From Candidatus Dormiibacterota bacterium (GTDB lineage: Bacteria > Chloroflexota > Dormibacteria > Aeolococcales > Aeolococcaceae), in the NCBI GenBank assembly GCA_963709585.1, contig CAVPXI010000013.1:64001-128000 (forward strand): 64,000 nucleotides of DNA, read 5' to 3'. The position numbers and the translations under genes are program-made. The notes beneath the pieces were generated by a model that saw nothing but the letters and a program-made list of their open reading frames with translations, was not told the DNA's origin and did not search any database. Positions 2,430 to 62,555 of this stretch are shown here, piece after piece (position 1 is the first letter of the stretch; each line of letters begins with the position of its first letter).

Positions 2430-2490
2430 TGGAGCGGAAGACGGGGCTCGAACGCGCAATTTCAACCTTGGGAAGGGGGCGGTCCGTTTT
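2430..2490 (-). repeat. tRNA-Gly(CCC) 3' half (2430-2476) with short flank shared with the 46.9-kb site
   Basis: Reverse complement CCTTCCCAAGGTTGAAATTGCGCGTTCGAGCCCCGTCTTCCGCTCCA: CCC anticodon loop, T-loop, U discriminator + CCA; no D arm or 5' half. Confidence 0.8.
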
Positions 2491-26332: not shown

Positions 26333-26693
26333 CAAAACTGTAAGCGCTATGTATGCGCTGGACTGCCACAATCTCTTGCTATGAGCAGCGGCATCCGGCC
26401 TCAACTGTGGGGAATGATGCCTTTTGCAGGAAAAGTCATCATTCCTGGTTAGAGCACTACACCCCGTTAGCCGGCAGGCCCCCAACGCACCGCGCAACCA
26501 CTCGTTGCGAACTCAAATTGCGCGTCCGTCGGGGAGACAGGACTCGAACCTGCGACCCCTGGTCCCCCAGACTAGTCCTCATTTCCCGATGCGTGCTGAG
26601 TTCGATTTAGAGTGGTTTTGTGGGGAATTGGTTGGAATGACGACTAGATTGCGTGTTTTGGACTTCGTTGGAATCGCGTGGACATCATTGGAG
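26333..26693 (-). repeat. Family A repeat copy 2 (both arms; tRNA-Pro fragment 26528-26575)
   Basis: Core identical to copy 1; arms align. Confidence 0.9.
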
Positions 26694-38502: not shown

Positions 38503-38640
38503 GAGGTGCCAGGGGCTCTCCGCCCACCCACGGCGAACGAATTTCGATCACGCTTGAGGAGCCTGAGTGCGGCGTGATCGGCGGGCGAAGAGAGGGCTTC
38601 GTGCCGAAAGTTCGAATAAGGAGATCTTCCCCCGTGAAAA

Positions 38641-38662
38641 CTGCGGAGCTAGGATTCGAACC
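38641..38662 (-). repeat. Short tRNA 3'-end fragment (T-loop to discriminator, Gln-like)
   Basis: Reverse complement GG-TTCGAAT-CCTAG-CTCCGCA-G. Confidence 0.45.
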
Positions 38663-38680
38663 GCAGACACACCGGGGGTT

Positions 38681-38823
38681 TGACCGTCTCCAGGCCAAGC
38701 GTGGACGTCTGATGGACGTCTGATGGACGGGGCGGCGGGAGACGGGGGTCTCCCGCGCGCGTACCACCGGCGCGCACGGAGTTGACTTCTCTTATCGGTT
38801 CGGTGCAGCTACGTGAGGGGGTT
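38681..38823. repeat. Family B att-like repeat copy 1
   Basis: TGGACG at 38702/38713/38724; palindrome GCGGGAGAC-GGGG-GTCTCCCGC at 38735-38756; TTCTCTTATCGGTTCGGT at 38787. Confidence 0.85.
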
Positions 38824-38883
38824 GTTCTCAGGGCATCGAGCGATGCGGCTGCATTCGCGTTCGGGCGAGCGGGCGTTCCGCGT

Positions 38884-39378
38884 TTAGACGTCGCCGCCGA
38901 CGCTGTTGGTCGTGGTCCGGCGGAAGGTCGCGCGTGATGACGACGGCGACACAAGTGCGATGAAGATGACCGCGTTCACCGTGACGGTCACGATCCCTGG
39001 TATCGGGGTCGTGGCGATCCTGACGAACAGGACTCCGATGGCGATCCACACGACGCAGAAGAGCAGCGCGCTGATGAACATGGTCCGCGTCAGTAGCCAC
39101 CTCGACCCCACGGTCCACAGGCCCCATCCACCCATCGTGGCGATGACGATGCCGACTTCGACGACCCACCCGCCGATCGGGGGGTCGCCCGGAGGGTCGT
39201 TCACGATGCCGGGCAGGCCGCTGCCGCCGCGCAGCACGATCAAGCCGCCCACGACAAGGAGGGTGCCGAGAAGCAGCCACCAGGCACTCTCGATCCCGAG
39301 CAGCAAGCGCGCGATCGCGACGCCGCGAGGAAACGGTGCTGCCCGTGTCCGATCGGTCAACACGCTGTGCTCATCCAT
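38884..39378 (-). CDS. 4-TM hypothetical membrane protein
   Basis: Four hydrophobic helices. Confidence 0.65.
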   Translation of the reverse strand: MDEHSVLTDRTRAAPFPRGVAIARLLLGIESAWWLLLGTLLVVGGLIVLRGGSGLPGIVNDPPGDPPIGGWVVEVGIVIATMGGWGLWTVGSRWLLTRTMFISALLFCVVWIAIGVLFVRIATTPIPGIVTVTVNAVIFIALVSPSSSRATFRRTTTNSVGGDV

Positions 39379-39543
39379 CGCCTTTGCGTGATCCTGCGCG
39401 CGCGTACAGACCGACAGAGGTATGTGCACGAAATTCACAGGAAACCGTAAGGCAAACGTAACGACCGCGCAAGGTCGCGCCCGCATAGTCCTGCTCAGTG
39501 CTGCTCGGCATCCTGCCAGGCGCCGCCCGTCGGAGGTTCAGCG

Positions 39544-41361
39544 ATGATCGCGTTCGGATACCTGGGTGACGAGTTGCGCCGTCGCTGGGGTCGAACCGTC
39601 GTCACCGCACTTGGTCTGGCCGCCGGGGTTGGTCTCGTCATGGGAATCATCGGCGTGTCCGCGGGGCTGAGCGCGGCACAGAACCAGGCACTGTCGCCGC
39701 TCTCGTCGGTCGGGACCGACATCATCGTCACCAGAACGGTGGGTGCGACGACGACTGCAGCTGCATCACCGAGTCCGTCCCCTGGGGCAACGCAGAGCGG
39801 GGGGACCGGAGGCGGCGGGTTCTTTGGTCCAGGCGCTGGCGGCGGTGGTGGGGGCGGTGGCGGTGCCGGCCTCGGGGGTGCCGGCCTCGGGGGTGCCTCT
39901 TCAACCATCAGCCAGCTCAATGCTGCGGATCAGGCGGCGCTCTTGAACGCAAACTCATCGGTGCTGACCGATCTCGCCAAACTCGGCCCGTCAGGCACGG
40001 CGTTCGTGCACGACTTCTTCGTTCCCGGGACGCTCATTACGTTCCCCCAGGTTGCTGTTCAGGATGTGGCTTCAGTTCCTGGCGTGGAATCCGCCGTACC
40101 CGGACTGTCGCTGCAGGCGATCCATGAGTTGGGAACCGTACCGGCGATCACCGACACGGTGACAACCGGTGGCCAGACGATCACGTCGGTTGAGAAGCCA
40201 GCGCCGCTCACCGCTGCTGAACAGAAGTCGGTGTCCGCCTGCATCCGGGCCGCGGGAGGCTTCACGCGGCCCTCACCGGGAGCCACCCCAAACCCCGGGG
40301 GCGACGGTGGAGGTCGGGGATTCGGTGCGGCCTTTACGAAGTGCCTGCCGGCGCGTTTCCAGCAATACGAAGCCAAGGTGGTGGTGCCGACTTAAACCAT
40401 CACCCGCATCCTCAACCCGCCAACCACGAACACCCAGACCAAGACCTACACCGCAGCGGCAGTGAATCCGACAAACACCACCACGGGGCTGATCACCAGC
40501 GCGCAGGTCGTGTCTGGCAGCTGGTTCTCCTCGACGCCAGCCGATGAGATTCTCGTCAACACCGCCTATGCCTCGAGCAACAGCATCAAGGCCGGTCAGA
40601 CGATGACCATCAACGGTACGGTGTACACGGTCCAAGGGTTGGTGGCCCCGACGCTCACCGGCGACGTGTCGGACCTCTACTTCGATCTGACCACCCTGCA
40701 GTCGCTGTCGACCAACTCGTCGCGGGTCAATGAGGTCCTCGTCAAGGTGTCCAAAGCGAGCGATGTCGATGCAGTTGCCGCAGCGATCAAGGCCAAGCTC
40801 CCCGGAGCGCAGGTGCTCACCGCGAAGTCGCTCGCCAATCAGGTGACCGGTAGTCTGGCCAACGCTCAGACCATCGCGGCCAACCTTGGCGGCGCCTTGG
40901 CGGTGATCATTCTGCTCGCTGCGTTCCTGATCGCTGCCCTGCTCACCACGTCGTCCGTCAGCAAGCGTGTCCGCGAGATTGGCACCCTTCGCGCCATCGG
41001 CTGGCGCAAGGCTCGCGTAGTGCGCCAGATCATGGCCGAGACCGTTGGCATCGGCATCGTCGGGGCCGTGATAGGCGTGCTCGCTGGACTCGCCGTCGCG
41101 GAAGCCGTGAACCTCTTCGGGCCGACGCTGTCCTCAACGACGTCTGGCTTGTCCGTCGGTGCGTCGACGGCCAGCACTCTCTTCCATCAAGCTACGACGG
41201 CGTCGACCAGTCAGTCGCTGCACCTCCAAGCCGTGATCACGATCACGACCGTGCTCCTGGGCGTCGGGTTCGCGCTCCTCGGCGGACTCGTCGCGGGCGC
41301 GCTCGGTGGTTGGCGAGCGGCACGACTGTCGCCTGCGATCGCCTTGCGAGATTTGGGATGA
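39544..41361 (+). pseudogene. MacB/FtsX-type ABC permease with in-frame TAA at 40393-40395
   Basis: ELRRRWGRTVVTALG N-terminus; KRVREIGTLRAIGW and RAARLSPAIALR C-terminus; both ORFs share one frame. Confidence 0.8.
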
Positions 41362-42065
41362 CGACCATGGACGTGGCGACCCCCCTCTACCAGCTCCGAG
41401 GCGTCGAACGCCGCTACCTCAAAGGTGCGGCGGAAGTGGTCGCGCTCCGCGATGTCGACCTCGAAATCACCCGGGGCGAGTTCATCTCCATCGAAGGACC
41501 CTCCGGTTCGGGCAAGAGCACACTCCTCCAGCTCGTCGGGGCGCTCGACACGCCCAGCGCCGGAACAGTGCAATTTGACAACCAAGATCTGTCCAGAGCT
41601 CGGGATCGCGCCTTGACGGACATCCGGGCGACCCGGATTGGCTTCATCTTCCAGCAGTTCAATCTGATTCCCACCTTGAGCGCGGCCGACAACGTCGCCA
41701 TCGCCGTCGACCCGCACGTCTCCAAGACGGACCGCCGCGCTCGAGCCCTGGAGTTGTTGGCATCAGTCGGCCTGGCGCAACGTGCGCATCACCTGCCGTC
41801 GCGCATGTCGGGTGGCGAGCAACAACGCGTCGCTATTGCTCGGGCGCTCGCCAATCGTCCGGAGGTCATCATCGCCGACGAGCCCACGGGAAACCTGGAC
41901 TCCAAGAGCGCCGCCGACGTCATGGAACTGCTGGTTGGGTTGCGATCGGAGACGGGTGTCACCGTGATCGTCGCCACCCACGACGAGGAGGTCGCCAAGC
42001 ATGCCAGCCGTCGCATTCGGATCCGCGATGGCGCTGTCGTATCCGATACAGCCGCGCAGCAATGA
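41358..42065 (+). CDS. ABC ATP-binding protein (LolD/MacB type)
   Basis: GPSGSGKST, FQQFNLIP, MSGGEQQRVAIARAL, ADEPTGNLD. Confidence 0.92.
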   Translation: MTTMDVATPLYQLRGVERRYLKGAAEVVALRDVDLEITRGEFISIEGPSGSGKSTLLQLVGALDTPSAGTVQFDNQDLSRARDRALTDIRATRIGFIFQQFNLIPTLSAADNVAIAVDPHVSKTDRRARALELLASVGLAQRAHHLPSRMSGGEQQRVAIARALANRPEVIIADEPTGNLDSKSAADVMELLVGLRSETGVTVIVATHDEEVAKHASRRIRIRDGAVVSDTAAQQ

Positions 42066-42161
42066 CCACCGGTCGCTGCTAGCCGGCTCGCTCACTACCG
42101 CCCGTACAAGCCGCTCGGGTGGCCGCGCTGGCTCCGCGACTGCGACGGAGGCTCGTGCGCC

Positions 42162-42692
42162 ATGACCGACAGACCGCGCCCGCCGACCGAAGACGAGCGG
42201 TTGGCCTTTGATGCTGCGACGCGGGGGTCTCCCAGGGAGTTCGTCCGCATCTGCCGCCGGGCTGGCAAAGAGCCGGGACGCATGCTCGATAGGTTTGACG
42301 CGACGCCGTGGCGTTGGTTGTACTACTTCTCGCCGTCGGACTTGGTGAGCGACGGGATGCGAACCCTGCCCTACCCACCAGAGATCCGAGCACGACTCGA
42401 CGCGACTCGCAAATATGTCGAGGCCCCAAAATGGCAGCGCATGTTTTGCGTCAGTAGACGTGCCGCCGGTTGCCGCTACGGTCACGCGCCTGCGCGACCA
42501 GGGGGGCGATGCCGTCGCCGACCCGGGACCCGTCTGGCGATGCCAGCACGAGCACGGCAGCAGCGCGTGTGTGCGATGCGGCATCTGGTAACCGTTGCGC
42601 TTCATCCGCGACGTCTGGAGGTACAACCGATGACCGACACGGAGCAGACACTCCTCCTCTGGCCGTATCCGCACGCACCTTGGTTGTGGTAG
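42162..42692 (+). CDS. Hypothetical protein, possibly frameshifted
   Basis: GGAGG RBS; protein-like N- and C-termini, Arg-rich middle. Confidence 0.4.
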   Translation: MTDRPRPPTEDERLAFDAATRGSPREFVRICRRAGKEPGRMLDRFDATPWRWLYYFSPSDLVSDGMRTLPYPPEIRARLDATRKYVEAPKWQRMFCVSRRAAGCRYGHAPARPGGRCRRRPGTRLAMPARARQQRVCAMRHLVTVALHPRRLEVQPMTDTEQTLLLWPYPHAPWLW

Positions 42693-42831
42693 ACGTAGCC
42701 CTCGCTCGGGTGATCGTTGAGCGAAGTCGTATCCGTATGGAACGCTGCAACCTTGGCCACTTGTTTCCGAGTTACCTCTCCCAGGAACGACGTCTGTTAG
42801 CTACCGCACCGAGCGGGGGATGCATGAGCGC

Positions 42832-43023
42832 ATGCCCACAATTACGTTGCTGCTCTGCCCGTGGTGTCACTCCACCCGGCTCGTTCTGCTGACCTACACG
42901 GTGCCAGCCGTGGCAGGCACACGCGATCTGCCCGGGACTCGGCCGAGTGCGAAGTGCGTCGCGTGCGGGCACGCGCTGCTCGCGCGAGACGTCCCCGTGC
43001 GCATGTTGCCGAGGTCAGACTAG
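42832..43023 (+). CDS. Small zinc-ribbon protein, paralog 3
   Basis: CPWCHSTRLVLLTY...RPSAKCVACG; stop lies ~37 bp before family B copy 2. Confidence 0.7.
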   Translation: MPTITLLLCPWCHSTRLVLLTYTVPAVAGTRDLPGTRPSAKCVACGHALLARDVPVRMLPRSD

Positions 43024-43059
43024 GTTGTGGCGATCGTGTCGGCGTTACCTACCGTCACA

Positions 43060-43175
43060 GGCGCGACGTGGACGTCTCATGGACGGGGCGGCGGGAGACG
43101 GGGGTCTCCCGCGCAAGTACCACTACGACTGGCGGAGTTGTTTTCTCTTATCGGTTCGGTACCGCTGCGTAAGGA
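43060..43175. repeat. Family B repeat copy 2
   Basis: TGGACG at 43069/43080; palindrome 43091-43112; TTCTCTTATCGGTTCGGT at 43143. Confidence 0.85.
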
Positions 43176-43410
43176 GATGGCTCGCAGGAATGGAGCGATG
43201 CGGCTGCAGTATCCTTCGGGCGATCATAACCGAGCCGGACTTTGCTGACCACTTCGCCGACTGGAGGCGTGGCTCGTGAGCTGTCGGTTCATCTGCGCCA
43301 GGTCGGGTGACATAACGCTCGTGTGGGGGAGAGTGGCGAGTTGTTAGTTGAGCAGGTGACCGCCCGCCCATTCGCGCCTGGATGCCAGTGTGGGTCATCC
43401 AGGCGGTGAG

Positions 43411-43992
43411 CTATCGCAGCTCATCGATGCTGTCGAGGAAGCTAAGCGCGCGTTGCTTAAGCAGCTTCGCGGCACCTTCGTCGTAGTCGGGCAGGCTGTT
43501 GTCAGCGAACAGATGGCGGTCGCCGGGATATAGGAACAGTTCCGCGCCCTCTACGGTCTCAACGAGCTCTCGCGCGGCAGGGAGGTCCTCCATCGCCCAC
43601 TCGTCGGCCTCCATCATGTGGATCTGGAGCGGAACTCCCGGCGGCCACGAGCCGCCGAACTCGGAGGCCGGGAAGGCAGCGCTAAACAGCAAGCATCCTT
43701 TCGCGCCGGGACGCATCTGGGCGAGCATCTGCGCTCCCATCACCCCGAGCGAGAAGCCGGCATAGACGAGCTCGTTCGGCAAGCTCTTAGCGGCGAGTTG
43801 ACACCGCTCTAGGATCGTGTCGAAGCCGACCTGCTTGGCGTAGTCAACGCCCTCGTCGAGCGTAGCGAACGTCTTGCCCTCGTAGAGGTCCGGGGAGTGA
43901 ACCGTGTGCCCGGCTGCGCGGAACTCGTCGGCGAACGCAAGGAATCCGGGTGTCTCTCCCTGCGCGTGGTGAAATAGCAATATCTCGGCCAT
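43411..43992 (-). CDS. Dienelactone hydrolase family alpha/beta hydrolase
   Basis: LLFHHAQG, PDLYEG, AGFSLG, YPGDRHLFAD. Confidence 0.88.
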   Translation of the reverse strand: MAEILLFHHAQGETPGFLAFADEFRAAGHTVHSPDLYEGKTFATLDEGVDYAKQVGFDTILERCQLAAKSLPNELVYAGFSLGVMGAQMLAQMRPGAKGCLLFSAAFPASEFGGSWPPGVPLQIHMMEADEWAMEDLPAARELVETVEGAELFLYPGDRHLFADNSLPDYDEGAAKLLKQRALSFLDSIDELR

Positions 43993-44323
43993 CACGGGAT
44001 TTTCTACCACACCAGAGCTACCAGACCTTGACGCACCCGTCATCCACGGTCAGAGCAATCTGGACCACACTGGCGTAGCACCTTGTTTCTTGAGCGTTCG
44101 ACGCGATCGAAGCAAACCGGGCTCGAGCCGCTCTCGCCGCCGCGGCTTGACAAAAGGTGGAAGCCTCGCGAGACTCCGGCCGCGGAGCGGAGCTACGAGT
44201 TTGGCGGTAGTGTCGCCGTCCGTTGACACCGGCGAAGGCGAAGACCACGCTATGGCCCCATCATCCGACCGTCGCTGTCAGATCGGGGATGGGCGACAAC
44301 GGCACGGTCCGTAGACTCATACC

Positions 44324-44911
44324 GTGTCCATTCAGGTGCGCCCGGCGACTCCGGATCTGTGGAGCGACCTTGTCACGGTGTTCGGTCACCGCGGTGACGA
44401 TCCTTCGTGGTGCTGGTGTCGCCTATTCCTTCGTCCGGCAGCCCGCGAATCTGCAGCATCGGAACCGCCACCCAACAATCGCGACGCGCTGCGGAAGGAG
44501 ATCACCGATGCCGCCATACCGCCAGGGCTCCTCGCTTATGTCGACGATCAGCCGGTCGGATGGACAAGAGTTGGTCCTCGATCAAGTTTCGCTGGCGTTG
44601 GCGGCAACACAGCATTGGCAAGAGTGCTCGCGGAGGATCCAGGAGTTTGGTGGGTGACTTGCTTTGCGGTCGACAGCCGCTACCGGCGATGCGGGGTCGG
44701 GTCAACGCTACTCAGGGCGGCGGTCGAGTTCGCCCGTGAGCACGGTGCGACAGCGGTCGAGGGTCATCCGGTCGATGTGGCTGCCCTGCGCGCTGCTCGG
44801 GTCGGAGGGTCCGCCATCTACACAGGAACCGTGGCCATGTTCTCCGCTGCGGGGTTCACCGAGATTGCACGCAGCTACCCCACCCGGCCGGTGATGAGGC
44901 TTCTGGTGTGA
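44324..44911 (+). CDS. GNAT family N-acetyltransferase
   Basis: CWC, PGLLAY...VGW, VTCFAVDSRYRRCGVG, VEGHP, FSAAGF. Confidence 0.88.
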   Translation: MSIQVRPATPDLWSDLVTVFGHRGDDPSWCWCRLFLRPAARESAASEPPPNNRDALRKEITDAAIPPGLLAYVDDQPVGWTRVGPRSSFAGVGGNTALARVLAEDPGVWWVTCFAVDSRYRRCGVGSTLLRAAVEFAREHGATAVEGHPVDVAALRAARVGGSAIYTGTVAMFSAAGFTEIARSYPTRPVMRLLV

Positions 44912-45048
44912 TGCCCGGACAGTCGGGGAAGACCCTGATCGAACATCAACGCGCCCCGAGAAATATCGGCACACGGTCAAGTCCCCGGTAGTGGTGTGAA
45001 TTCGGTGGAGTTCTCACAGCGTTCGGCCAGCTACGCGACGAGTTCAGA

Positions 45049-45445
45049 CGCTGACAACATTCTCGGGCGAGCACGCGTCGCGTCCTTTGCCGGCATCCCG
45101 CGTGTCGTCTTCGCCGACCGGAGGTTGCTGCGATGGGTCTCACGGCCGACAAGGCTCGTCTGGGTGGCATCGACGCTGCCGCCGCTGAGATTAGCGTCGC
45201 CGACAGCGTGGACCCCTCCTGGACCTACGTACGAGATCCCCGTGGCGCCGTGGGCGTGGTCGCGGATCGCAGTCGTCGCGTGCTCGTGGGACGTGGACGT
45301 GCGCGCCGCTCGCCAGCGAGTGGCTCCACCAGGCTGCTCTCGCAATCCGGGCCGAGCTCTCGGTCGATGTCCTGTTCGACCAGGTCGCACAATATCCACC
45401 TACAGCGAGGCGTACCTCGCAGTCCTGGCCCGACTGGACTGGTAG
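45049..45445 (+). pseudogene. C-terminal dimerisation domain of a pyridine nucleotide-disulfide oxidoreductase, frameshifted remnant
   Basis: Stitched across frames: ADNILG..IPRVVF / MGLT..VVADRSRRVLVG / EWLHQAALAIRA..QY / TYSEAY. Confidence 0.6.
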
Positions 45446-45603
45446 GACCGGACAAGAATCGACGTCATGGCTCGGCGCAACGGCGTGAAACTGCGCTGGG
45501 AGAGTTCAGCTGCCGCATCTCACGCTGGAACCACACAGCGACCACACTCCATCGCACGTCCAACGAGCGCGCGTCCACGAAACGTGGCTGTCGAGCGCGA
45601 TAT

Positions 45604-45749
45604 TTTGATGAGCGTCTCATGCGCGGCGTGGACGCGTCATGGACGTCTGATGGACGGGAAGTGAGCAAGGGGGTCTCCCGCGCGAATACTACCGACGCGC
45701 GCGGAATTGATTTCTCTTATCGGTTCGGTGCGGCTGCGTAGGGGGGGTT
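45604..45749. repeat. Family B repeat copy 3 (left half of core palindrome altered)
   Basis: TGGACG at 45629/45640/45651; GGGGGTCTCCCGC; TTCTCTTATCGGTTCGGT at 45712. Confidence 0.85.
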
Positions 45750-46011
45750 CGCCGCCGTGACTTCTTCCGTCACTTCCGAATAGCCACCGACGAGCAGCAT
45801 ATGCACTTCGGTCTCGAGCCAGTTTGAGCAGGAATGTTGATCGAGGGCGCTGTCGGCTGGTGATATTTGTGTGCCGAGGTTGGCATGGGGCTGGCCTACT
45901 CAAACCTGGCAGAGGTACGCGAGCGCCTGGCCACGATCGCCAAGCCAGCGAGGTCATTGACCTCCTTCGGGGTCGGGAATCCGGGGCACCTCCTAGAAGT
46001 ACAGTTGTTCA

Positions 46012-46485
46012 ATGCCGAATCGTACGAAGGGCGCCTCGCTTGGCGTCCTAGTTGTAGCGTTCGGGGCATCGTGCGGCCAGCACGCGCAGCTCCCGACTAC
46101 GACGTCGGCTCCGACGAGCGCACCGGCGCTTACCTCGACGGCGGGAACTTACCCCGCCACCTTCGTCGGCGCCATCCAGGATGGCCTTGACCTCTTCAGT
46201 TCCACCAGCGGCAAGCCCATTCGCCGGCTCACCACCGCAGCCCTAAGTGGAGGTGATCAGTACCCAAGTCTCATCGGTGACGGTGAGATGGTCTATTTCG
46301 TTCGCGCCATATCCTCATGCGGCGAGAGTGGCTCGTCGGGCGGCATATGGGCCGTGTCCGCGGACGGCGGGCCGGCATCCGCCGTTGTCCCAACTCCGCC
46401 ACAGGACGTCGATCTTGTCCCGATCGTCAGTGGCGACGGCGAGATGCTCGCATGGGAGCGAGCGCGCCTCGCGGAGGAGCGCTGA
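46012..46485 (+). CDS. Putative lipoprotein with TolB/PD40-like repeats, probably truncated
   Basis: Lipobox-like GASC; P.LIGDGEMVYF and P.VSGDGEMLAW repeats. Confidence 0.55.
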   Translation: MPNRTKGASLGVLVVAFGASCGQHAQLPTTTSAPTSAPALTSTAGTYPATFVGAIQDGLDLFSSTSGKPIRRLTTAALSGGDQYPSLIGDGEMVYFVRAISSCGESGSSGGIWAVSADGGPASAVVPTPPQDVDLVPIVSGDGEMLAWERARLAEER

Positions 46486-46844
46486 CACCTCCCTCTCACT
46501 GCGGTCGCTGGTCGGGTCGAGGTCCGGCATCGTGGTCATTCTGACCCTTCCGGGCCCCCCTTCCTGACCATCGATAATGGAAAGGTATCGCTCGTGAGGA
46601 GGCGGAAAGTGGACGGCCTGCCGTGACTAAGAACCTCATCCCCAGCCAAGCCGCGCAGCTCGCCCGTCTCCGGGCGCTCGAGCGGCTGCCCGAGGCTACG
46701 CAACGGCGAGCAAGGCACCCCACACTCTCCGGGCGTGCAGTCGCGACCTCCGCGACCTCGAAGACGTCTATCGCAATGCCGGTGGCCTTCCACTCCTCGA
46801 GGCCTTAATGCGCGATGCGACGACATCGAAGGCGAACCCGATGT

Positions 46845-46965
46845 TAGATGACCGTCTGAGGCGCGGCGTGGACGCGTCATGGACGTCTCATGGACGGGGC
46901 GACGGGAGACGGGTCTCGAACCCGCAAGTTCAACCTTGGGAAGGTGACGGTCTGTTCTTGGTTCG
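46845..46965. repeat. Family B copy 4: TGGACG arm joined to a tRNA-Gly(CCC) 3' half (46903-46944)
   Basis: TGGACG at 46869/46880/46891, then cgggagacgggtctcgaacccgcaagttcaaccttgggaagg, which aligns with 2430-2476. Confidence 0.85.
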
Positions 46966-47200
46966 GGTCACGGACAAAACCCTCGCCCGATAACCGACGC
47001 GTTTGCACAGCTCGAGCTGTTCACGGTTCCGACCTCAGTGGTTATCCTCCGCCGAGAGTCGCGCGACTTAGAGTGGTTTTGCAGGAAAGAACATCAATCA
47101 GGGAATGCGTACTAGTCCCTGCAAAGTGACTGATCCCCGCAAGTTGGAATCGGCTGCATTTGAGTGGAAATGGCTTCACTGCAGTGCAATGGGATGCGAA

Positions 47201-47358
47201 TCGGGGAGACAGGACTTCGAACCTGCGACCCCTGGTCCCCCAGACTAGTCCTCATTTCCCGATGCGGGCTGAGTTCGATTTAGAGTGGTTTTGTGGGGAA
47301 TTGGTTGGAATGACGACTAGAGCGCGCGTTATGGATTTCGTTGGAATCGCGTGGACAT
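47201..47358 (-). repeat. Family A copy 3 (tRNA-Pro fragment 47201-47248 with 1-bp insertion + right arm only)
   Basis: Right arm nearly identical to copy 2. Confidence 0.9.
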
Positions 47359-47393: not shown

Positions 47394-47792
47394 TCAGCCC
47401 CTCATCAGCACTTCAGAGTCGGCAACGGAGGTGACGTCAACGCCGCCATGCACGCCGAGCGCGAGGAGGTCGGCGTCGCCGGTGACAAGAGCATCGGCCG
47501 ATCCGGTTATGGCTATCGCAAGGATCTGATCGTCATCGGGATCCCGACAGACGCGCGGAACCTCAATCGGCGTCACCACATCGGCCATGGCCTCGAGCTC
47601 CGCTCGCACCGCGACAGCCCGATCGCTCGCCCAGCCACAGGTCTCGACGAGCACGGCCTCCAGCTCACGGAGGATCGCGGGACCGATGATCAGGGTGTGA
47701 TCACCACGGAGGACGTCGTCGAGGAGACGTCGCGGGCGTCCACCAAAGTGGAGCGCCGACACCAGCACATTGGTGTCGAGAACGACCCGCAC
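47394..47792 (-). CDS. PIN-domain (VapC-like) toxin
   Basis: MRVVLDTNVLVSAL...CRDPDDDQILAIA...LVTGDADLL. Confidence 0.9.
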   Translation of the reverse strand: MRVVLDTNVLVSALHFGGRPRRLLDDVLRGDHTLIIGPAILRELEAVLVETCGWASDRAVAVRAELEAMADVVTPIEVPRVCRDPDDDQILAIAITGSADALVTGDADLLALGVHGGVDVTSVADSEVLMRG

Positions 47793-48785: not shown

Positions 48786-49135
48786 AAAGCTGTAAGCGCT
48801 ATGTAGGCGATTGACTGCCACAATCCGATCCATGAGCAGCGGCATCCGGCCTCAACCGTGGAGATTGATGCCTTTTGCAGGAAAAGTACTTATTCGCGTT
48901 TAGAGCACTACACCACGTGGGCGCGCAAGCGCCCAAACGCACTGCGCAACCTCTCGTTGCGAACTCAAGTCGGGCGATTGTCGGGGAGACAGGACTCGAA
49001 CCTGCGACCCCTGGTCCCCCAGACTAGTCCTCATTTCCCGATGAGCGCTGAGTTCGATTCAGACTGGTTTTGCCGGGAATTGGTTGGAATGACGACTAGC
49101 GCAGTTGCGATGGAATCCATTGGATTCCCGTCAAC
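48786..49135 (-). repeat. Family A copy 4 (both arms; tRNA-Pro fragment 48980-49027)
   Basis: Core identical to copies 1 and 2; arms align. Confidence 0.9.
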
Positions 49136-49403
49136 ACGCACCCACGGTGCTGGACATTACTTCCCTCCCTCACCCCTCTGGACTTTGGGCATTCTGACGG
49201 CCGTCGGGCGCGTCGATCATCTGAAGCCCGTGGATCTGCTGACAGGGCGCTTGTGTGCCGGAGATCGCCTCACTCGGTTTAGCATCCGCCTCAGGGCTGA
49301 CGCTCAGGCTTGGATCTCTCCCTCCATGTGGGATGCTGGCGCGGTGACCGGATGGGCCGCGCTCCACCAGATCATCGGGATGGCCGGAGCGAGCTCGCCT
49401 CTG

Positions 49404-56230: not shown

Positions 56231-56493
56231 GTCGTGTTCCTCCGAGTCGTGTGTTGTATGCAACGGCACCATCGTCGGAGGCTCGCGGTACTCCTGTCGT
56301 CCGTCCGGAAGCGACACCTTCGGCTACGTCCGGCGGCGTAGCTCAGTGACGACTTGCTTACGGCAGCGCTTGGCTCGCCGACACGTGCGCTCGTCCCTGA
56401 CAAGTCAGAGGAACCGCGATGTCCATTTCTCGATGTTCCCGTTCGTCTTAGGACTGAAGACCAACCGAACCGCCACTCACAAGGAGAGTCGCC

Positions 56494-56886
56494 ATGTCGT
56501 CGAATCAGGAAGCCACCGCCGTTGAGGTCGCTCGGGCTCACGTTGCCGCGTGGGGCAAGCACGACTACGAGGTCGCGCGCGCCGCGCTTGCAGCCGATGT
56601 CCACGTTTCGGTCTCGAGCGTCGATCCCGAGGCACCGAAGGTCGACACCACGGGGGTCCAGGACTACATGCAAGGTCTGATGCAGTTCGGTCATGCCGTG
56701 TTGCCGGGCACGACCACGGTGAACTCCGGGGTCGGCGATGAGACGCGGGCGCTGTTACACGTGACCTCGCGCGTGAAGTTCGGGCCAGATGCGCCAGAGA
56801 TGACGCTCCGGGGAGCGCGCCTCTATCGACTTGACGAGGATCAGAAGATCATCGACGAGCAGGTGGTGTTTTTCGTCACGCTGTAA
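56494..56886 (+). CDS. SnoaL/NTF2-like protein
   Basis: VARAHVAAWGKHDYEVARAALAADV...YRLDEDQKI. Confidence 0.8.
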   Translation: MSSNQEATAVEVARAHVAAWGKHDYEVARAALAADVHVSVSSVDPEAPKVDTTGVQDYMQGLMQFGHAVLPGTTTVNSGVGDETRALLHVTSRVKFGPDAPEMTLRGARLYRLDEDQKIIDEQVVFFVTL

Positions 56887-56975
56887 TCACGCGGCGGTAG
56901 CCGGGGGCCTCTTGAGGCCTCCGGTCGCTCGCGGTTGTTTGGCAGCAGCCAGCGAACAACTTGAAGGAGGACCCG

Positions 56976-57317
56976 ATGCGATATGCGATGTTGGTCTACG
57001 TCGACGAGAGGACAGACAGGAGCGAGGAGGCTGTCGAGAGCGAATACGCCGCGTTCATGGCGTTCCAGGACGAGATGGAAGCCCGTGGAGTTCTGGTCGC
57101 ACGCGAGCGTCTGCGCGAGGCGACGCTCTCGACGACGGTGAGGGTTCGAGACGACAGGCTCGTGGTCGCCGACGGTCCTTTTGCCGAGACCAAGGAGCAG
57201 ATCGCCGGCTTTTACGTCATCGAGGTCGCGGATCTCGACGAGGCGATCGAGATCGCTTCCCAGAATCCGGGCGCCCGCTCCGGCACGATCGAGGTCCGAC
57301 CAGTGTGGCAGCTCTAG
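56976..57317 (+). CDS. YciI/DGPF family protein
   Basis: DGPFAETKEQIAGFY...IEVRP. Confidence 0.92.
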   Translation: MRYAMLVYVDERTDRSEEAVESEYAAFMAFQDEMEARGVLVARERLREATLSTTVRVRDDRLVVADGPFAETKEQIAGFYVIEVADLDEAIEIASQNPGARSGTIEVRPVWQL

Positions 57318-58562
57318 CCGATGCGCAGGCGGCGGTCGACGAGGCCTTCCGGGCCAACTGGGGTCGCGTCGTCGCCTACCTGATCCACGTTACTGGCGAT
57401 TGGGACCTGGCCGAGGAGTGCGCCCAGGATGCGTTCGAGCGGGCTATCGCTCGCTGGCCACGCGATGGGATTCCATCGAGTTCCTGCGGCCTGGTTGAAA
57501 ACGACTGCGCGAAATCGTGCACTGGACCGGATGCGGCGAGACACGGTGGGCGAAGCCAAGCTCAGGGAGGTTGCTGTGACGGGACCCGCAGCACGTCACG
57601 ACGACGACAACGACAGCGGGATTGACGACGATCGGCTTCGGTTGATGTTCACATGCTGTCACCCAGCGCTCCCGGTCGAGGCTCAGGTGGCGCTGACGCT
57701 TCGCACACTCGCGGGTTTGACGACACCCGAGATAGCACGCGCCTTCCTGCTCCCTCAGGAGACGATGGCGAAGCGGTTGACGCGCGCTAAGCGCAAGATT
57801 GTCGAGGCACGCATTCCATATCGCGTGCCGGATGCGCGCCATCTGCAGGAGCGGCTGCGCGCGGTGCTGGCAGTGATCTACGCGCTTTTCAACGAGGGCT
57901 ACGGCGCGAGCACCGGCGACGAGCTGATTCGCAAGGAACTCTGCTCGGAGGCGATCCGTCTGGGACGGTTGCTGGCGGAGCTTATGCCCGATGAGCCAGA
58001 GGCCCTTGGGTTGCTTAGCCTCCTGCTCCTTCAGGACTCGAGGCGCCAGGCACGCATCGACGGCGAGGGCGAGTTGGTGACGCTGGCGGACCAAGATCGC
58101 GCGCTCTGGGATCGAGCCGGGATCGACGAGGCGTGCATGCTCCTCGATCGAGCCATGCGGCATCGACGACCGGGGCCGTACCAGTTGCAGGCCGCGGTCG
58201 CAGCCTGCCATGCCCAGGCTCGGACCTCCGACGAGACGGACTGGCGGGAGATCGTGGTCCTCTATGACCGGCTGAGCGAGATTGCACCGACGCCGGTTGT
58301 GCTGCTCAACCGCGCCGTGGCTGTGGCGATGGCCGACGGGCCGGCGGTGGGACTCGCGCTGCTCGTCGAGCTGGAACAAGCGGAAGTCCTGTCCGGTTAC
58401 TACCTGCTGCCCGCGACGCGTGCCGATTTGCTCAGACGACTGACGCGCCACGCTGAGGCGCAGACGGCATATCGCGAAGCGCTTGCGCTGGCGCCGACCG
58501 ACGCCGAGAAGCGGTTTCTTCTTCGGCGCCTATCTGAGCTAGCCCCGCCGGGCGACCGATGA
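57305..58562 (+). CDS. ECF42-type sigma factor with C-terminal TPR, frameshift near 57480
   Basis: DLAEECAQDAF; DDRLRLMFTCCHPAL; GPYQLQAA; paired with a DGPF gene. Confidence 0.88.
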
Positions 58563-58574
58563 CGGGGCCGGTTT

Positions 58575-58722
58575 GTCGGGGAGACAGGACTCGAACCTGC
58601 GACCCCTGGTCCCCCAGACCAGCACTTATTCGCGGATTCGGGTTGAGTTCGACTTACAGTGCTTTCGTCGGGAAATGGTTGGAATGACGACTAGACCGTG
58701 CGGATTGGAATCGCGTCGACGT
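58575..58722 (-). repeat. Family A copy 5 (tRNA-Pro fragment 58575-58622 with intact anticodon stem + right arm only)
   Basis: Reverse complement CTGGT-CTGGGGG-ACCAG perfect stem; right arm closest to copy 1. Confidence 0.9.
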
Positions 58723-60190: not shown

Positions 60191-61421
60191 TGCTCGTCGA
60201 GTTCATCGATTCTCCTGTCCTCTGAGTCGAGCTTCGGACCACCGACTCGATCTGCTCTGTGGAGTACACGTCGTCGACCGGGATCATGCCGCCGAGCGCC
60301 CCGATAATCCGCGTCACTGTCTCGGGTCGTCGCGACGCAGCCTCGTAATAGCGTCGCAGGTGGGCTGGCAGGGGCTTGAGAGCCGCCGCGCTCAGGGTCA
60401 GGCGAAATCCGTTAGCTGTCGCGTCATCGCGGCGCCGCTGGTAATCGATGAGTGCCTCCTTCCACGGGCGAGCCCCGACCAGTGCCGAGTGGGCGGCGGC
60501 GGCCAGCATCTCCGCGGACGCGAACGCGTCCGACATGCCGAACCCGGTCGTCGGGTCCTTGTGATGACCCGCATCGCCGGCAAGCGCCCAACCGTTGCCG
60601 TAGGACTTGCGGTAAAAGTTCACGAGATCGCTCGCGCCTCGGAATCGCTCCTCGCGGCGTCCAGATGCGATCTCATCGTGCAGACCGGGGATCGCCTCGA
60701 GCGACTTCATGAAATTCCCCTCGATGTCGCGCCGGAACTCGGCGAACTCTGACTGGTGCCCGCCCACATAGACGCAGGTCAGGTCATCATTGGTCGGCCA
60801 GCGCAGAATCAGCCGGCCGGGGCGCATGTGATAGGTCGGCGACCTGGTAGGAACGCCGCTCCAATACGAGTAGTACACAAAGGTCAGTGGCGGCTCCAGC
60901 ACGTACGGCTCAGCGCCGGCCTCCGCGGCGATCACCGAATGGCGTCCATCCGCGCCCACAACGAGGCGAGCATCGATACGCCTGGCAGCACTGGACGATG
61001 GTTTGATATCGACACCGCAGGCGTGCCCATCAGACCACCTCAGCGATCGCACAGACGTGCGGTCGAAGAGTTCTACCCCCACCTCGAGAGCCGCACCAAC
61101 CAGCATGCTGTCGAGTACGGTCCGCCGAGGGCAGAAAGCTGCGCTCACTTCTCGAACCGACGGTACCTGGCCAGTGAGCGAAACTGAGCCGAAGTCAAAC
61201 GTCAGCGACGGGATCGGTTGGCAGCCACGTGATTGGAGGCGGTCGAGCAGCCCCCAGGACTCCAGCAGCGCGGCACCGTGCGGCCACAAAAAGTGGCTCG
61301 AGATGGTGTCGCTCGGGAACTCGGCTCTGTCGACCAGCGCGACGCGGTGACCGCGCCGCGCCAGGAGCATCGCGAGTGACGCTCCGGCGCAGCGCGCTCC
61401 CACGACGACGACGTCGTACAT
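60180..61421 (-). CDS. NAD(P)/FAD-dependent oxidoreductase
   Basis: YDVVVVGARCAGA, VGADGRHS, GWALAGDAGHHKDP. Confidence 0.88.
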   Translation of the reverse strand: MYDVVVVGARCAGASLAMLLARRGHRVALVDRAEFPSDTISSHFLWPHGAALLESWGLLDRLQSRGCQPIPSLTFDFGSVSLTGQVPSVREVSAAFCPRRTVLDSMLVGAALEVGVELFDRTSVRSLRWSDGHACGVDIKPSSSAARRIDARLVVGADGRHSVIAAEAGAEPYVLEPPLTFVYYSYWSGVPTRSPTYHMRPGRLILRWPTNDDLTCVYVGGHQSEFAEFRRDIEGNFMKSLEAIPGLHDEIASGRREERFRGASDLVNFYRKSYGNGWALAGDAGHHKDPTTGFGMSDAFASAEMLAAAAHSALVGARPWKEALIDYQRRRDDATANGFRLTLSAAALKPLPAHLRRYYEAASRRPETVTRIIGALGGMIPVDDVYSTEQIESVVRSSTQRTGESMNSTSSDD

Positions 61422-61446
61422 CGTCGGTCAGCCCAGGGCGGAGGGG

Positions 61447-61674
61447 TTAGCCGACGGGTTGACCAGCCGCGAGCGCCTTGACGTCGGCCGTCGTGAGGGG
61501 ATTGCCGGCGATTCCCCAGTCCCCACTTTTGACCTCCTCAACGATGACCCACGTCACCGGACGCAACGCCTCGCCCTCGATCTCCACCATCGTATCCGTG
61601 AGCCTGCGGACGATGTCGCGCTTCTGGCTCTCATTGAACACTCCCTCGATCAGCTTGACGTTCACCAAGGGCAT
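61447..61674 (-). CDS. 4-oxalocrotonate tautomerase family protein
   Basis: N-terminal catalytic Pro (MPLVNVK)...EEVKSGDWGIAG; AAGGAGG RBS. Confidence 0.9.
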   Translation of the reverse strand: MPLVNVKLIEGVFNESQKRDIVRRLTDTMVEIEGEALRPVTWVIVEEVKSGDWGIAGNPLTTADVKALAAGQPVG

Positions 61675-61692
61675 CGTGGCCACCTCCTTGAA

Positions 61693-61751
61693 TAGCACGA
61701 CCGATCGGTCGTTTGTTGTGGTGAGGACCATAACACGACCGTTCGTGCTAT
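61693..61751. promoter_or_regulatory. Tandem TetR operators in the divergent promoter
   Basis: Perfect 16-bp palindrome ACGACCGATCGGTCGT (61697-61712) and related ACACGACCGTTCGTGCT (61733-61749). Confidence 0.7.
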
Positions 61752-61762
61752 ACAAGTCCCTG

Positions 61763-62419
61763 ATGCCATTACAGACCACCCGCGGCCTCGCCACCAGGCA
61801 AGGAATCCTGGAGGCTGCGACGGCCATCGCGAGCGTGGAGGGTCTCGAGGGCCTGACGCTTGGTCAACTCGCCGCCGACCTCTCGATGAGCAAGAGCGGC
61901 CTCTTCGCCCACTTCGGCTCCAAGGAGGACCTGCAGCTGGCGACGATCGAACATGCCCGGCAGATCTATGTTGACCAGGTGATCCTTCCGGGCCTGGCCC
62001 ACGCGCCCGGTATCGCGACGCTCTACCAACTCTGTGATCGGTACCTCGCCCTCATGGAGCGGCGAGCCTTCCCCGGTGGGTGCTTCTTTGCCGCGGCGAT
62101 GGCGGAGTTCGACGCGCGGCCAGGTGTCGTACGCGACACGATCGCGATGTTGCAACGCCAGTGGCTGGACCTGCTCGAAGGGGCAGCCCGGGACGGAGTC
62201 CGCCTCGGCGAGCTGAATCGTGGCGTCGATTCGGTCCAGCTCGGCTTCGAGCTTGAAGCCGCGATGCTCTCCGCCAACTGGTACTTCCACCTCTACAGTG
62301 ATGCCCGGTTCTTCGCCCTATCCCGGGCCGCCGTACAACGCACGCTAAGAGCGGCGGCGACGTCGAAGGGTCGACGCACGCTCGAAGGTACGGAAGAGGC
62401 GGTCACGCAGGGCCGCTGA
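61763..62419 (+). CDS. TetR family regulator
   Basis: LTLGQLAADLSMSKSGLFAHFGSKEDLQ; FPGGCFF. Confidence 0.9.
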   Translation: MPLQTTRGLATRQGILEAATAIASVEGLEGLTLGQLAADLSMSKSGLFAHFGSKEDLQLATIEHARQIYVDQVILPGLAHAPGIATLYQLCDRYLALMERRAFPGGCFFAAAMAEFDARPGVVRDTIAMLQRQWLDLLEGAARDGVRLGELNRGVDSVQLGFELEAAMLSANWYFHLYSDARFFALSRAAVQRTLRAAATSKGRRTLEGTEEAVTQGR

Positions 62420-62555
62420 GAGGGCGTTGCCAGTGTCCCCCTTGGTCTCCGGTCTCCCGGGGCCGAGGCCACACCGACGTTCGCAAACAAAGTCCGCGCG
62501 AGCCCTATGCGGGTCCGGTTGACGGCGCGAGGGCTTCGGCCGCAAGCTCCCAGCT

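Follow-up and report, generated by a model that had tools for sequence, protein, structure and literature searches.

Repeat sites and cassettes in the window

The stretch of DNA analysed here, hereafter the window, comprises 64,000 nt of contig C13 (C13:64001-128000) from a metagenome bin of Candidatus Dormibacterota (assembly G000; 88.8% complete, 3.52 Mb, 24 contigs). Between 38.7 and 46.9 kb it holds four direct repeats, which we call B sites, with three small gene cassettes between them. The repeats are best explained, with a probability that we put at roughly 0.7, as attachment-site junctions: within one genus of this phylum, small recombinase-less cassettes would have been inserted site-specifically at the very 3′ end of tRNA-Gly(CCC). 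Positions without a contig prefix refer to the window; genomes are designated by G numbers, contigs by C numbers and loci by L numbers.

A repeat search of the window returned a 77-nt family with four copies (starting at 38692, 43048, 45619 and 46859; 61-77% identity to copy 1) and a 78-nt family with three (38744, 43100 and 45669). All four copies carry TGGACG units spaced by exactly 11 nt; copy 2 has two of them and each of the others three. An invariant 18-mer, TTCTCTTATCGGTTCGGT, has three exact occurrences, when 0.02 would be expected by chance and 0/100 shuffles reach three, and the 22-bp palindrome GCGGGAGAC-GGGG-GTCTCCCGC is found twice (0.00 expected), in copies 1 and 2, the left half in copy 3 reading AGTGAGCAA. 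A preliminary description, made from the sequence alone, had listed these same features, i.e. four direct repeats at 38.7, 43.1, 45.6 and 46.9 kb, two or three TGGACG motifs 11 bp apart in each, a perfect palindrome altered on the left in copy 3 and an invariant sequence shared by copies 1-3, and all of them are borne out, with none of the repeats expected by chance. According to gene calls based on G+C content at third codon positions (GC3), the four sites are all intergenic. Copy 4 matches only positions 2-89 of the site model (nhmmer).

Table 1. B sites, cassettes and neighbouring family A sites. Positions are those of the window unless a contig is named.
Feature	Position	Strand	Content and basis
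B site copy 1, full composite	38681..38880	-	TGGACG arm 38681-38734, units at 38702, 38713 and 38724; palindromic core 38735-38756; second arm 38757-38880; 18-mer 38787-38804 (plus-strand reading)
B site copy 2, full composite	43037..43238	-	TGGACG units at 43069 and 43080; core 43091-43112; second arm to about 43238; 18-mer 43143-43160
B site copy 3	45604..45757	-	TGGACG units at 45629, 45640 and 45651; core 45660-45681, left half degraded (AGTGAGCAAGGGGGTCTCCCGC); second arm with 18-mer 45712-45729
B site copy 4, attL-like	46844..46945	-	TGGACG arm, units at 46869, 46880 and 46891; 43-nt tRNA-Gly(CCC) fragment (reverse complement) at 46903-46945; without second arm
Cassette 1	38881..43036		200-aa membrane protein without family (38884-39486, -); FtsX/MacB-type permease as two open reading frames (39544-40395 and 40462-41361, +); ABC ATPase (41310-42065, +); Pfam
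Cassette 2	43239..45603		Dienelactone hydrolase (43411-44043, -); GNAT acetyltransferase (44324-44911, +); Pfam
Cassette 3	45758..46843		Single 157-aa secreted protein, possible lipoprotein (46012-46485, +)
Family A site, left end of enclosing segment	26333..26687	-	tRNA-Pro(GGG) 3′ fragment and arms
Family A site, right end of enclosing segment	47032..47358	-	tRNA-Pro(GGG) fragment 47201-47253 and arms; 87 nt from the tRNA-Gly fragment of copy 4
Cluster II B sites, outside the window	C13:165661, 175713, 178240, 180550, 184900	+	BLAST and nhmmer

B cassettes measure from 1.1 to about 10 kb; they contain several genes, which point both ways and come with regulators of their own. The cargo had been described as integron-sized, which is true in part, but the range of sizes and the multi-gene, two-way arrangement with regulators mean that the cassettes are not integron-like in expression. 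The product of cassette 3 has no Pfam match; it starts with a signal peptide and an ...FGAS-C motif, and by eye a lipoprotein is plausible. From cassette 2, the hydrolase gene alone matches chromosomal genes in G005, G008 and G002 at 84-90%. Over the whole of C13, the cargo consists of transporters, regulators, and redox and stress genes.

The core of the site and the 3′ end of tRNA-Gly(CCC)

ARAGORN places a tRNA-Gly(CCC) gene at C4:124614-124685 of the assembly. It ends in the 13 nt CCCCGTCTCCCGC, which, read on the opposite strand, give the left half of the palindrome together with the GGGG loop. This 13-mer occurs seven times in the 3.52-Mb assembly, once in the tRNA gene and six times in B sites, and is exact in six of the eight full sites with single changes in the other two. 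The suggestion that one palindrome half derives from a tRNA-Gly 3′ end is supported, and copy 4 goes beyond it, holding positions 28-70 of tRNA-Gly(CCC), 43 nt at 95% identity. Read in the sense of the tRNA (window minus strand), a full site consists of a right arm (armR), the core and a left arm (armL) with a conserved length of about 170-200 nt. ArmR is a conserved cassette end of about 100 nt with the invariant blocks CCGAACCGATAAGAGAA and GTGGTAC; the core reads GCGGGAGAC-CCCC-GTCTCCCGC, its last 13 nt being identical to tRNA positions 60-72; and armL, the end of the next cassette, is made up of two to four tandem 11-nt GTCCATnAGAC units followed by GAGACGGTCATCAATCA. The TGGACG units presumably resemble the arm-type or directionality-factor sites of tyrosine recombinase systems.

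Searches for an RNA function of the sites came out negative. ARAGORN found no tRNA gene in the window and no tRNA or tmRNA in the sites, and neither window nor sites gave an Rfam match at gathering or E<=1 thresholds. RNAalifold, run on 24 sites, predicts only the 9-bp stem of the palindrome, the pairs of which are invariant, while the long arms are conserved in sequence. A second helix was considered and dropped, being paired in 63% of cells only and equalled in 37-76 of 500 shuffles, and with it the idea of a structured RNA or of a site folded as single-stranded DNA. Since there is neither a known RNA nor a structure beyond the invariant palindrome, the sites would rather fit DNA that is bound by protein.

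Several smaller features of the sites may be recorded here. The number of 11-nt TGGACGTCTCA units at window position 43068 is polymorphic, copy 2 having two in the window and three on a contig of soil run X1, and metagenome locus L084 having four. The TGGACG arms of copy 1 and of the site C13:175713 are each adjoined on the outside by a third tRNA-like piece, ..CTGCGGTTCGAATCCTAGCTCC.. when read in tRNA sense (38640-38680 and C13:175672-175712), which has no match at E<=1e-4 among the 49 tRNAs found in the assembly. In several relatives, T-arm-like GGAGTCGAACC or GGATTCGAAC motifs stand at the outer end of armR. Further tRNA-Gly(CCC) fragments of 28-44 nt, at window 2433-2476, C13:15338-15365 and C4:127344-127387, have position 28/29 of the tRNA as their first base and follow a conserved ..ACGGACCG.. 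arm; they represent a second, anticodon-loop type of tRNA-Gly attachment site. The fragment C4:127344-127387 closes a 2.7-kb island behind the real tRNA-Gly gene, whose sole content is a 545-aa protein, by eye Cys-rich and secreted, and which lacks a recombinase.

Junction types across the genus

A profile of the site was run over the genome and its relatives, as had been proposed. B sites were found in 10 of the 36 other genomes of the genus and in 0/24 of the sister family, G062 and G010 adding two more. In a one-genome-per-species collection, armR accompanies the exact palindrome at 14 of 15 loci, 11 of the 15 having titles that read Dormibacterota, and a metagenome scan yielded 30 loci, with the TGGACG arm in 13 and the native tRNA flank in five.

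All four types of junction predicted for integration at a tRNA gene are present across the genus. Intact tRNA-Gly(CCC) followed directly by armL is seen in G026 (contig C123), where two full sites follow 2.9 and 12.9 kb away, and with a diverged arm in G008, so that the TGGACG arm does occur beside an intact tRNA-Gly gene. The second type, a tRNA-Gly fragment of 43-45 nt joined to armL, is represented by copy 4 in G000 and by G022:C92 and G015:C37. Junctions of armR and core with native flank occur in G015 (C91 and C37) and G017 (C94), as well as in G010, 1.5 kb behind its tRNA gene, native flank meaning the sequence that follows tRNA-Gly in G000 (TGACA..CCAGTTTCG..GGATCGGA..). Full composite sites between cassettes number eight in G000, with more in G026, G015, G017 and G022. 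The G000 array ends in a tRNA fragment and not at an intact tRNA gene. A comparison of the arrays of G008 and G026 was set aside as a case of insertion polymorphism, since their RHS-type genes are just 66% alike and G008 has no internal site.

From this, one may picture a new cassette recombining with the tRNA-proximal site or with any internal site, which would leave the tRNA joined to armL at one end of the array, armR, core and armL between cassettes, and armR and core joined to native flank at the far end. The recombinase would act in trans, from a gene outside the window. The order of events, like present-day mobility and the nature of the enzyme, is what we infer; what the sequences show is how the sites are built, which junctions exist, that the arms reassort, that a cassette is duplicated as a unit and that recombinase genes are absent.

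Distribution in the assembly and nesting in a tRNA-Pro array

BLAST and nhmmer profile searches of the whole assembly returned nine B sites, all of them on C13, on the plus strand and in two clusters. Such a distribution bears on the possibility that the motif is a dispersed repeat of the repetitive extragenic palindrome (REP) or miniature inverted-repeat transposable element (MITE) kind, or a cis-regulatory or RNA element, which lies between genes by chance and is rearranged by homologous recombination. The intergenic position of the sites, their perfect hairpin and the number of 11-nt units, which varies in the fashion of tandem repeats, would all be in line with this, but a dispersed repeat should be present in many copies and both orientations, whereas the 3.5-Mb assembly has nine, all on a single contig and strand, and its core should not be a tRNA end with junctions to intact tRNA and native flank. 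The lack of any Rfam match, of a T-run after the hairpin and of covariation, the nine palindrome pairs never changing on both sides, is equally at odds with it, and we regard the idea as very improbable.

The B cluster of the window lies inside a segment bounded by sites of another family, termed family A, as had been proposed: A sites flank it at 26333-26687 and 47201-47358. A family A site is composed of a tRNA-Pro(GGG) 3′ fragment of 41-53 nt and conserved arms of 100-300 nt, with long and short arm subtypes. The 21 fragments all have a single orientation; 17 are on C13, from 11.8 kb to the intact tRNA-Pro(GGG) gene at C13:211509-211583, and four on C14, before a second intact copy. The two arrays extend over C13:11.6-211.6 kb and C14:18-72 kb, with window members at 1930-2282, 26333-26687, 47032-47358, 48786-49136 and 58575-58712. 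No tyrosine or serine recombinase gene is found within the roughly 200 kb of C13 spanned by family A. Because the B array of the window stands away from its tRNA gene, ending in a 43-nt tRNA-Gly fragment inside the larger tRNA-Pro(GGG) array, it was probably brought to this place within a larger element.

The G+C content of C13 is 0.646, against 0.66-0.68 in the other large contigs, and the region C13:210801-212147, in which tRNA-Pro is accompanied by the beginning of a der/EngA-like gene, is matched at 86.7% identity by C14:71629-72268. These two versions of one chromosomal anchor reflect either a duplication or two related populations in the bin.

Other genes were noted beside family A sites. 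A PIN-domain (VapC-like) toxin gene adjoins one at window 47394-47792, and 1.05 kb of DNA including this gene has a 91%-identical counterpart next to a different A site (at C13:135004-135663), where a ribbon-helix-helix partner gene was called as well; these are toxin-antitoxin pairs at the ends of cassettes. The sole IS110-family transposase gene of C13 (147132-148391, outside the window) is about 370 nt from the family A site C13:148759.

Evidence for recombination at the sites

The two halves of the sites have separate histories. Over 14 full sites, the similarity matrices of armL and armR are uncorrelated (Mantel r = -0.21, p = 0.88), and in 12 of the 14 armL and armR do not share their nearest relative; in copy 1, for instance, the left half is closest to C13:175713 (0.91) and the right half to C13:180550 (0.91). 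Junctions that each unite ends from two different cassettes would be expected to show such independence. Moreover, cassette 1 has a second copy at C13:180570-185112, 93% identical over 4.2 kb, with sites at both ends and different neighbouring cassettes. Identity rises inside the left site and drops to a 30-40% background just past the right site, so that the duplication runs from site to site. Junction types, reassorted arms and this duplication together uphold the proposal that the repeats are recombination-type sites bounding variable gene cassettes. The duplicate carries the permease as one 603-aa reading frame, as against two in the window.

Contigs assembled from other soil runs (X1, X4, X5 and X6; assembled contigs and not raw reads) were aligned to the window at 92% likeness, and window parts lacking cover in runs X4-X6 were not counted as absence. 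In copy 2, a contig of run X1 gains a further 11-nt unit behind 43068, which makes three; one of run X4 has different DNA to the left of the arm of copy 4, at 46847; and one of run X5 joins the end of cassette 1 (43078) back to copy 1 (38712). Such polymorphism at the sites lends weak support to their recombination, and the X5 contig is the single, low-depth outcome of the proposed test of excision between copies 1 and 2.

Which recombinase?

The preliminary description had assigned the sites to a tyrosine recombinase, and this has found no support. Six-frame family searches gave no PF00589, PF00239 or PF07508 match on C13, nor is there a PF00589 match on the site-bearing contigs of 10 relatives. 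All 11 tyrosine recombinase matches of the assembly are on other contigs, several of them close to tRNA genes; tyrosine integrases adjoin tRNA-Gly(GCC) and tRNA-Gly(TCC) in G000 (C8:90778 and C14:321552); the assembly has no large serine recombinase, only a 196-aa resolvase on C4. Among the 265 reading frames scanned on C13, the IS110 transposase is the only mobility gene, and tblastn of 10 recombinases against 440 kb of site loci produced fragments only. Two proteins were also considered as possible movers and rejected: a 476-aa protein in a 10-kb cassette of cluster II has just a weak ThiF match and no PHROG, and the 545-aa protein of the island at the G000 tRNA-Gly gene, apparently a Cys-rich secreted protein, has no Pfam match.

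A tyrosine integrase does lie beside tRNA-Gly in relatives. A 307-aa Xer-like enzyme is encoded 190-240 nt upstream of tRNA-Gly(CCC) in seven of them (G008, G019, G030, G010, G014, G035 and G002), and orthologues (>=60% identity) exist in 16 of 42 genomes. In G026, where the layout was pieced together from two contigs overlapping by 141 identical bases, it heads an array of at least two cassettes. One could therefore think of an integron-like platform, in which this small enzyme would be a resident integrase that captures cassettes at the 3′ end of the tRNA in the way of IntI at attI. We consider this highly unlikely, since the enzyme belongs to a different element that is flanked by copies of the tRNA 5′ half. 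In G016 (L045/L046, C3:34.4-43.0 kb), a 70% orthologue is part of an 8.5-kb element with an AAA_25 replication-type ATPase, having a 37-nt, 100%-identical copy of positions 1-37 of tRNA-Gly(GCC) upstream and the whole tRNA downstream, and in G008 (L030, C1:253.2-254.6 kb) the same layout comprises no gene but the integrase, the tRNA copy there being 36 nt long and covering positions 4-39 (alignment score 50; best of 200 shuffles 28). Going by these flanks, the Xer-like recombinase moves its own element into the 5′ half or anticodon region of tRNA-Gly and not into the 13-nt 3′ core. In the 36 genomes searched for both, sites occur in 10 and the integrase in 14, and the two coincide in four, against 3.9 expected if independent. 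In addition, the tRNA-Gly locus of G000 lacks the enzyme, which scores 19-20 bits with the integron-integrase model (cut-off 265) and far below every NCBIfam cut-off for XerC/D or IntI. As an observation in its own right, these loci define a family of integrative elements on the 5′ side of tRNA-Gly, with a copy of its first 37-39 nt upstream and the whole tRNA downstream, a layout less common than 3′-side insertion.

Another candidate is a large serine recombinase. A complete gene of this kind (Resolvase, Recombinase and Zn ribbon) in G062 (L064/L065, C13:244475-246163) terminates within a tRNA-Gly(CCC) fragment, in the 3′ end of the latter. The frame of the gene runs through the reverse complement of the fragment, the last 15 or so residues (..ETGLEPATSTLGR) coming from tRNA-derived DNA. 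Behind tRNA-Gly in G019, the last 40 residues of this recombinase can still be read; pieces from its C-terminus or its interior adjoin B cores in G066 and G036, and on metagenome contig L091 armR and core lead into the start of the end of such a gene. In G066, the fragments beside one site form a 570-nt inverted duplication. The trans-acting enzyme may be this large serine recombinase, with its gene that reads on into the end of tRNA-Gly. However, an intact orthologue is present in one of 42 genomes and in none of the G000 contigs, and the G062 element has no core, repeat or B site at its other end within 18 kb. Long arms with phased repeats are not known to be required by serine integrases. 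We give about equal odds to a large serine recombinase, with remnants at some cores, and to a tyrosine integrase. A phage or plasmid carrier was sought as well and rejected, because IMG/VR holds no exact core and the relatives of the serine recombinase there are only 23-24% identical.

Live cassettes or scars

The lack of a cognate recombinase in G000 raises the question of whether the sites are fossil scars only, i.e. dead remnants of once-autonomous integrative elements of the kind known as cis-mobilizable elements (CIMEs), whose cassettes never moved as cassettes. The degraded core of copy 3, the permease of cassette 1 split into two frames when its paralogue has one, and the truncated serine-recombinase fragments beside some cores would be in keeping with such decay, a path described in the literature (PMC5704250). 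Yet independent elements in decay would be expected to leave ends that are heterogeneous and the debris of integrases, whereas more than 20 cassettes on site-bearing contigs, from about a dozen genomes and metagenome contigs, have no integrase remnant inside and both arms are 80-94% alike beside unrelated cargo. The arms also reassort, the same cassette is found in two arrays and the sites vary between samples. On balance, scars alone seem an unlikely explanation.

Several points weigh against the insertion of cassettes at the tRNA end as set out above. The 6 nt after the core differ among junctions (CGCCCC, TGACAG, TGACCC, TGGCT), and the exact crossover point cannot be placed from them. Copy 1 has a full armL where the end of the array would be expected, and in cluster II (C13:165.7-184.9 kb) neither a tRNA-type nor a native-flank end is recognisable. 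In G066 (L062/L063, G066:C2:22.9-41.5 kb), two B sites (core and armR) point towards each other over 18.6 kb, in a region without tRNA-Gly, an arrangement that a simple tandem model does not predict and that suggests inversion between the sites. Homologous recombination between the 170-nt repeats could yield both the duplication of a cassette and part of the arm reassortment. The backward joint from 43078 to 38712 is seen on one contig of run X5, at depth 3.4 and 92% likeness; it may come from a circular cassette 1, but equally from a tandem duplication of the cassette or from another cassette order. Furthermore, we infer site-specific recombination from the anatomy of the sites, to which no recombinase is tied. 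Finally, C13 may come from a second, related population, and if so any claim that G000 lacks the enzyme is weak.

Insertion of recombinase-less cassettes at the tRNA-Gly end nevertheless remains the reading that we prefer. The B family is recombinase-less, conserves its sites, is specific for the 3′ end of tRNA-Gly and is nested in a tRNA-Pro super-array, and it is an unusual form of the known building of islands by tandem tRNA-anchored accretion. A bolder view, which we put forward tentatively and with some doubt, is that of integron-like gene capture on tRNA ends, in which recombinase-less cassettes, each with a bipartite site of about 170-200 bp made of a palindromic core copied from the acceptor end of tRNA-Gly and an arm of phased 11-nt repeats, are inserted, excised and shuffled by a rarely present, trans-acting enzyme, at tRNA genes and at tRNA fragments in other islands, so that together with the tRNA-Pro family they build a 200-kb super-array of about 25-30 cassettes. 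In the usual picture of tandem tRNA islands, self-sufficient elements decay after insertion; here the cassettes keep long conserved sites, with no recombinase in any copy examined. If the cassettes still moved in trans, they would provide a general integron-like route for swapping transporters, regulators, and stress and detoxification enzymes in an abundant uncultured soil phylum, and even as scars only, the sites are precise markers for units of gene flux.

Comparison with known systems

Integrons share with the B arrays the rows of recombinase-less cassettes ending in a conserved site, the composite junctions, and the shuffling and duplication of cassettes. They differ in that no integrase gene stands beside a B array and in that B cassettes are multi-gene, with both orientations and their own regulators. 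The attC site of integrons is a long imperfect palindrome conserved in structure only, whereas the B site is a short perfect palindrome with long arms that are conserved in sequence. Nor do the G+C-rich, all-direct B sites seem to resemble pdif modules, the 28-bp dif-like sites of which are bound by XerC/XerD and alternate in orientation.

Closer parallels are found among islands at tRNA-type genes. Both in accretion of the CIME/ICESt1/ICESt3 type and in the ssrA islands of Dehalococcoides, as in the B arrays, islands are stacked behind a tRNA-type gene and set apart from one another by direct repeats of its 3′ end. CIMEs are defined, and a three-step model of accretion is set out, in PMC5704250; like the B cassettes, some islands lack an integration module and are thought to be moved in cis or trans. 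Likewise, 15 ssrA islands have no integration module, and extra conserved bases flank their 20-bp repeat, according to PMC3146451. The B family differs from CIME-type accretion in several respects: no cassette examined has a recombinase; the site, conserved over about 170-200 nt, is bipartite, with a palindromic core and phased 11-nt units; and cassettes may be as small as 1.1 kb, in arrays that stand away from the tRNA gene, at tRNA fragments nested in another array. The tycheposons of Prochlorococcus are likewise tRNA-anchored islands with scattered partial tRNAs, in which older elements are displaced inward by each later integration and niche genes make up the cargo; they are described as carrying their own integrase, and many of them replication genes too, neither of which is found in the B cassettes scanned (bioRxiv 10.1101/2020.12.28.424599).

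As regards the enzyme, SCCmec with CcrAB and DsiB of the Dehalococcoides ssrA islands offer a likeness, given that the G062 large serine recombinase ends in the tRNA-Gly(CCC) 3′ end and that its remnants lie at tRNA-Gly or at B cores. The likeness is limited by the rarity of an intact orthologue, one in 42 genomes and none in G000, and by the lack of a B site within 18 kb at the far end of its element. A full-text search of the literature, judged by titles and abstract openings, brought up no comparable integron-like tRNA cassette system.

Other repeated sequences on the contig

Besides cassette 1, C13 holds other duplications on the scale of a cassette. A 2.2-kb block with an FAD monooxygenase and a TetR regulator (window 60230-62430) is 97.7% identical to C13:12459-14659, and a second one of the same size with SnoaL, YCII and sigma-factor-like genes (window 56388-58563) is 93% identical, in inverted orientation, to C13:155402-157577. 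A 45-70-nt sequence (GGTCAAGTCCCCGGTAGTGGTGTGAATTCGG...) at window 44975-45043 recurs at 90-95% identity in three other places of the assembly, in or near islands; it is also present in many genomes of the genus, with several copies in each, and produces backward joints in contigs aligned to the window.

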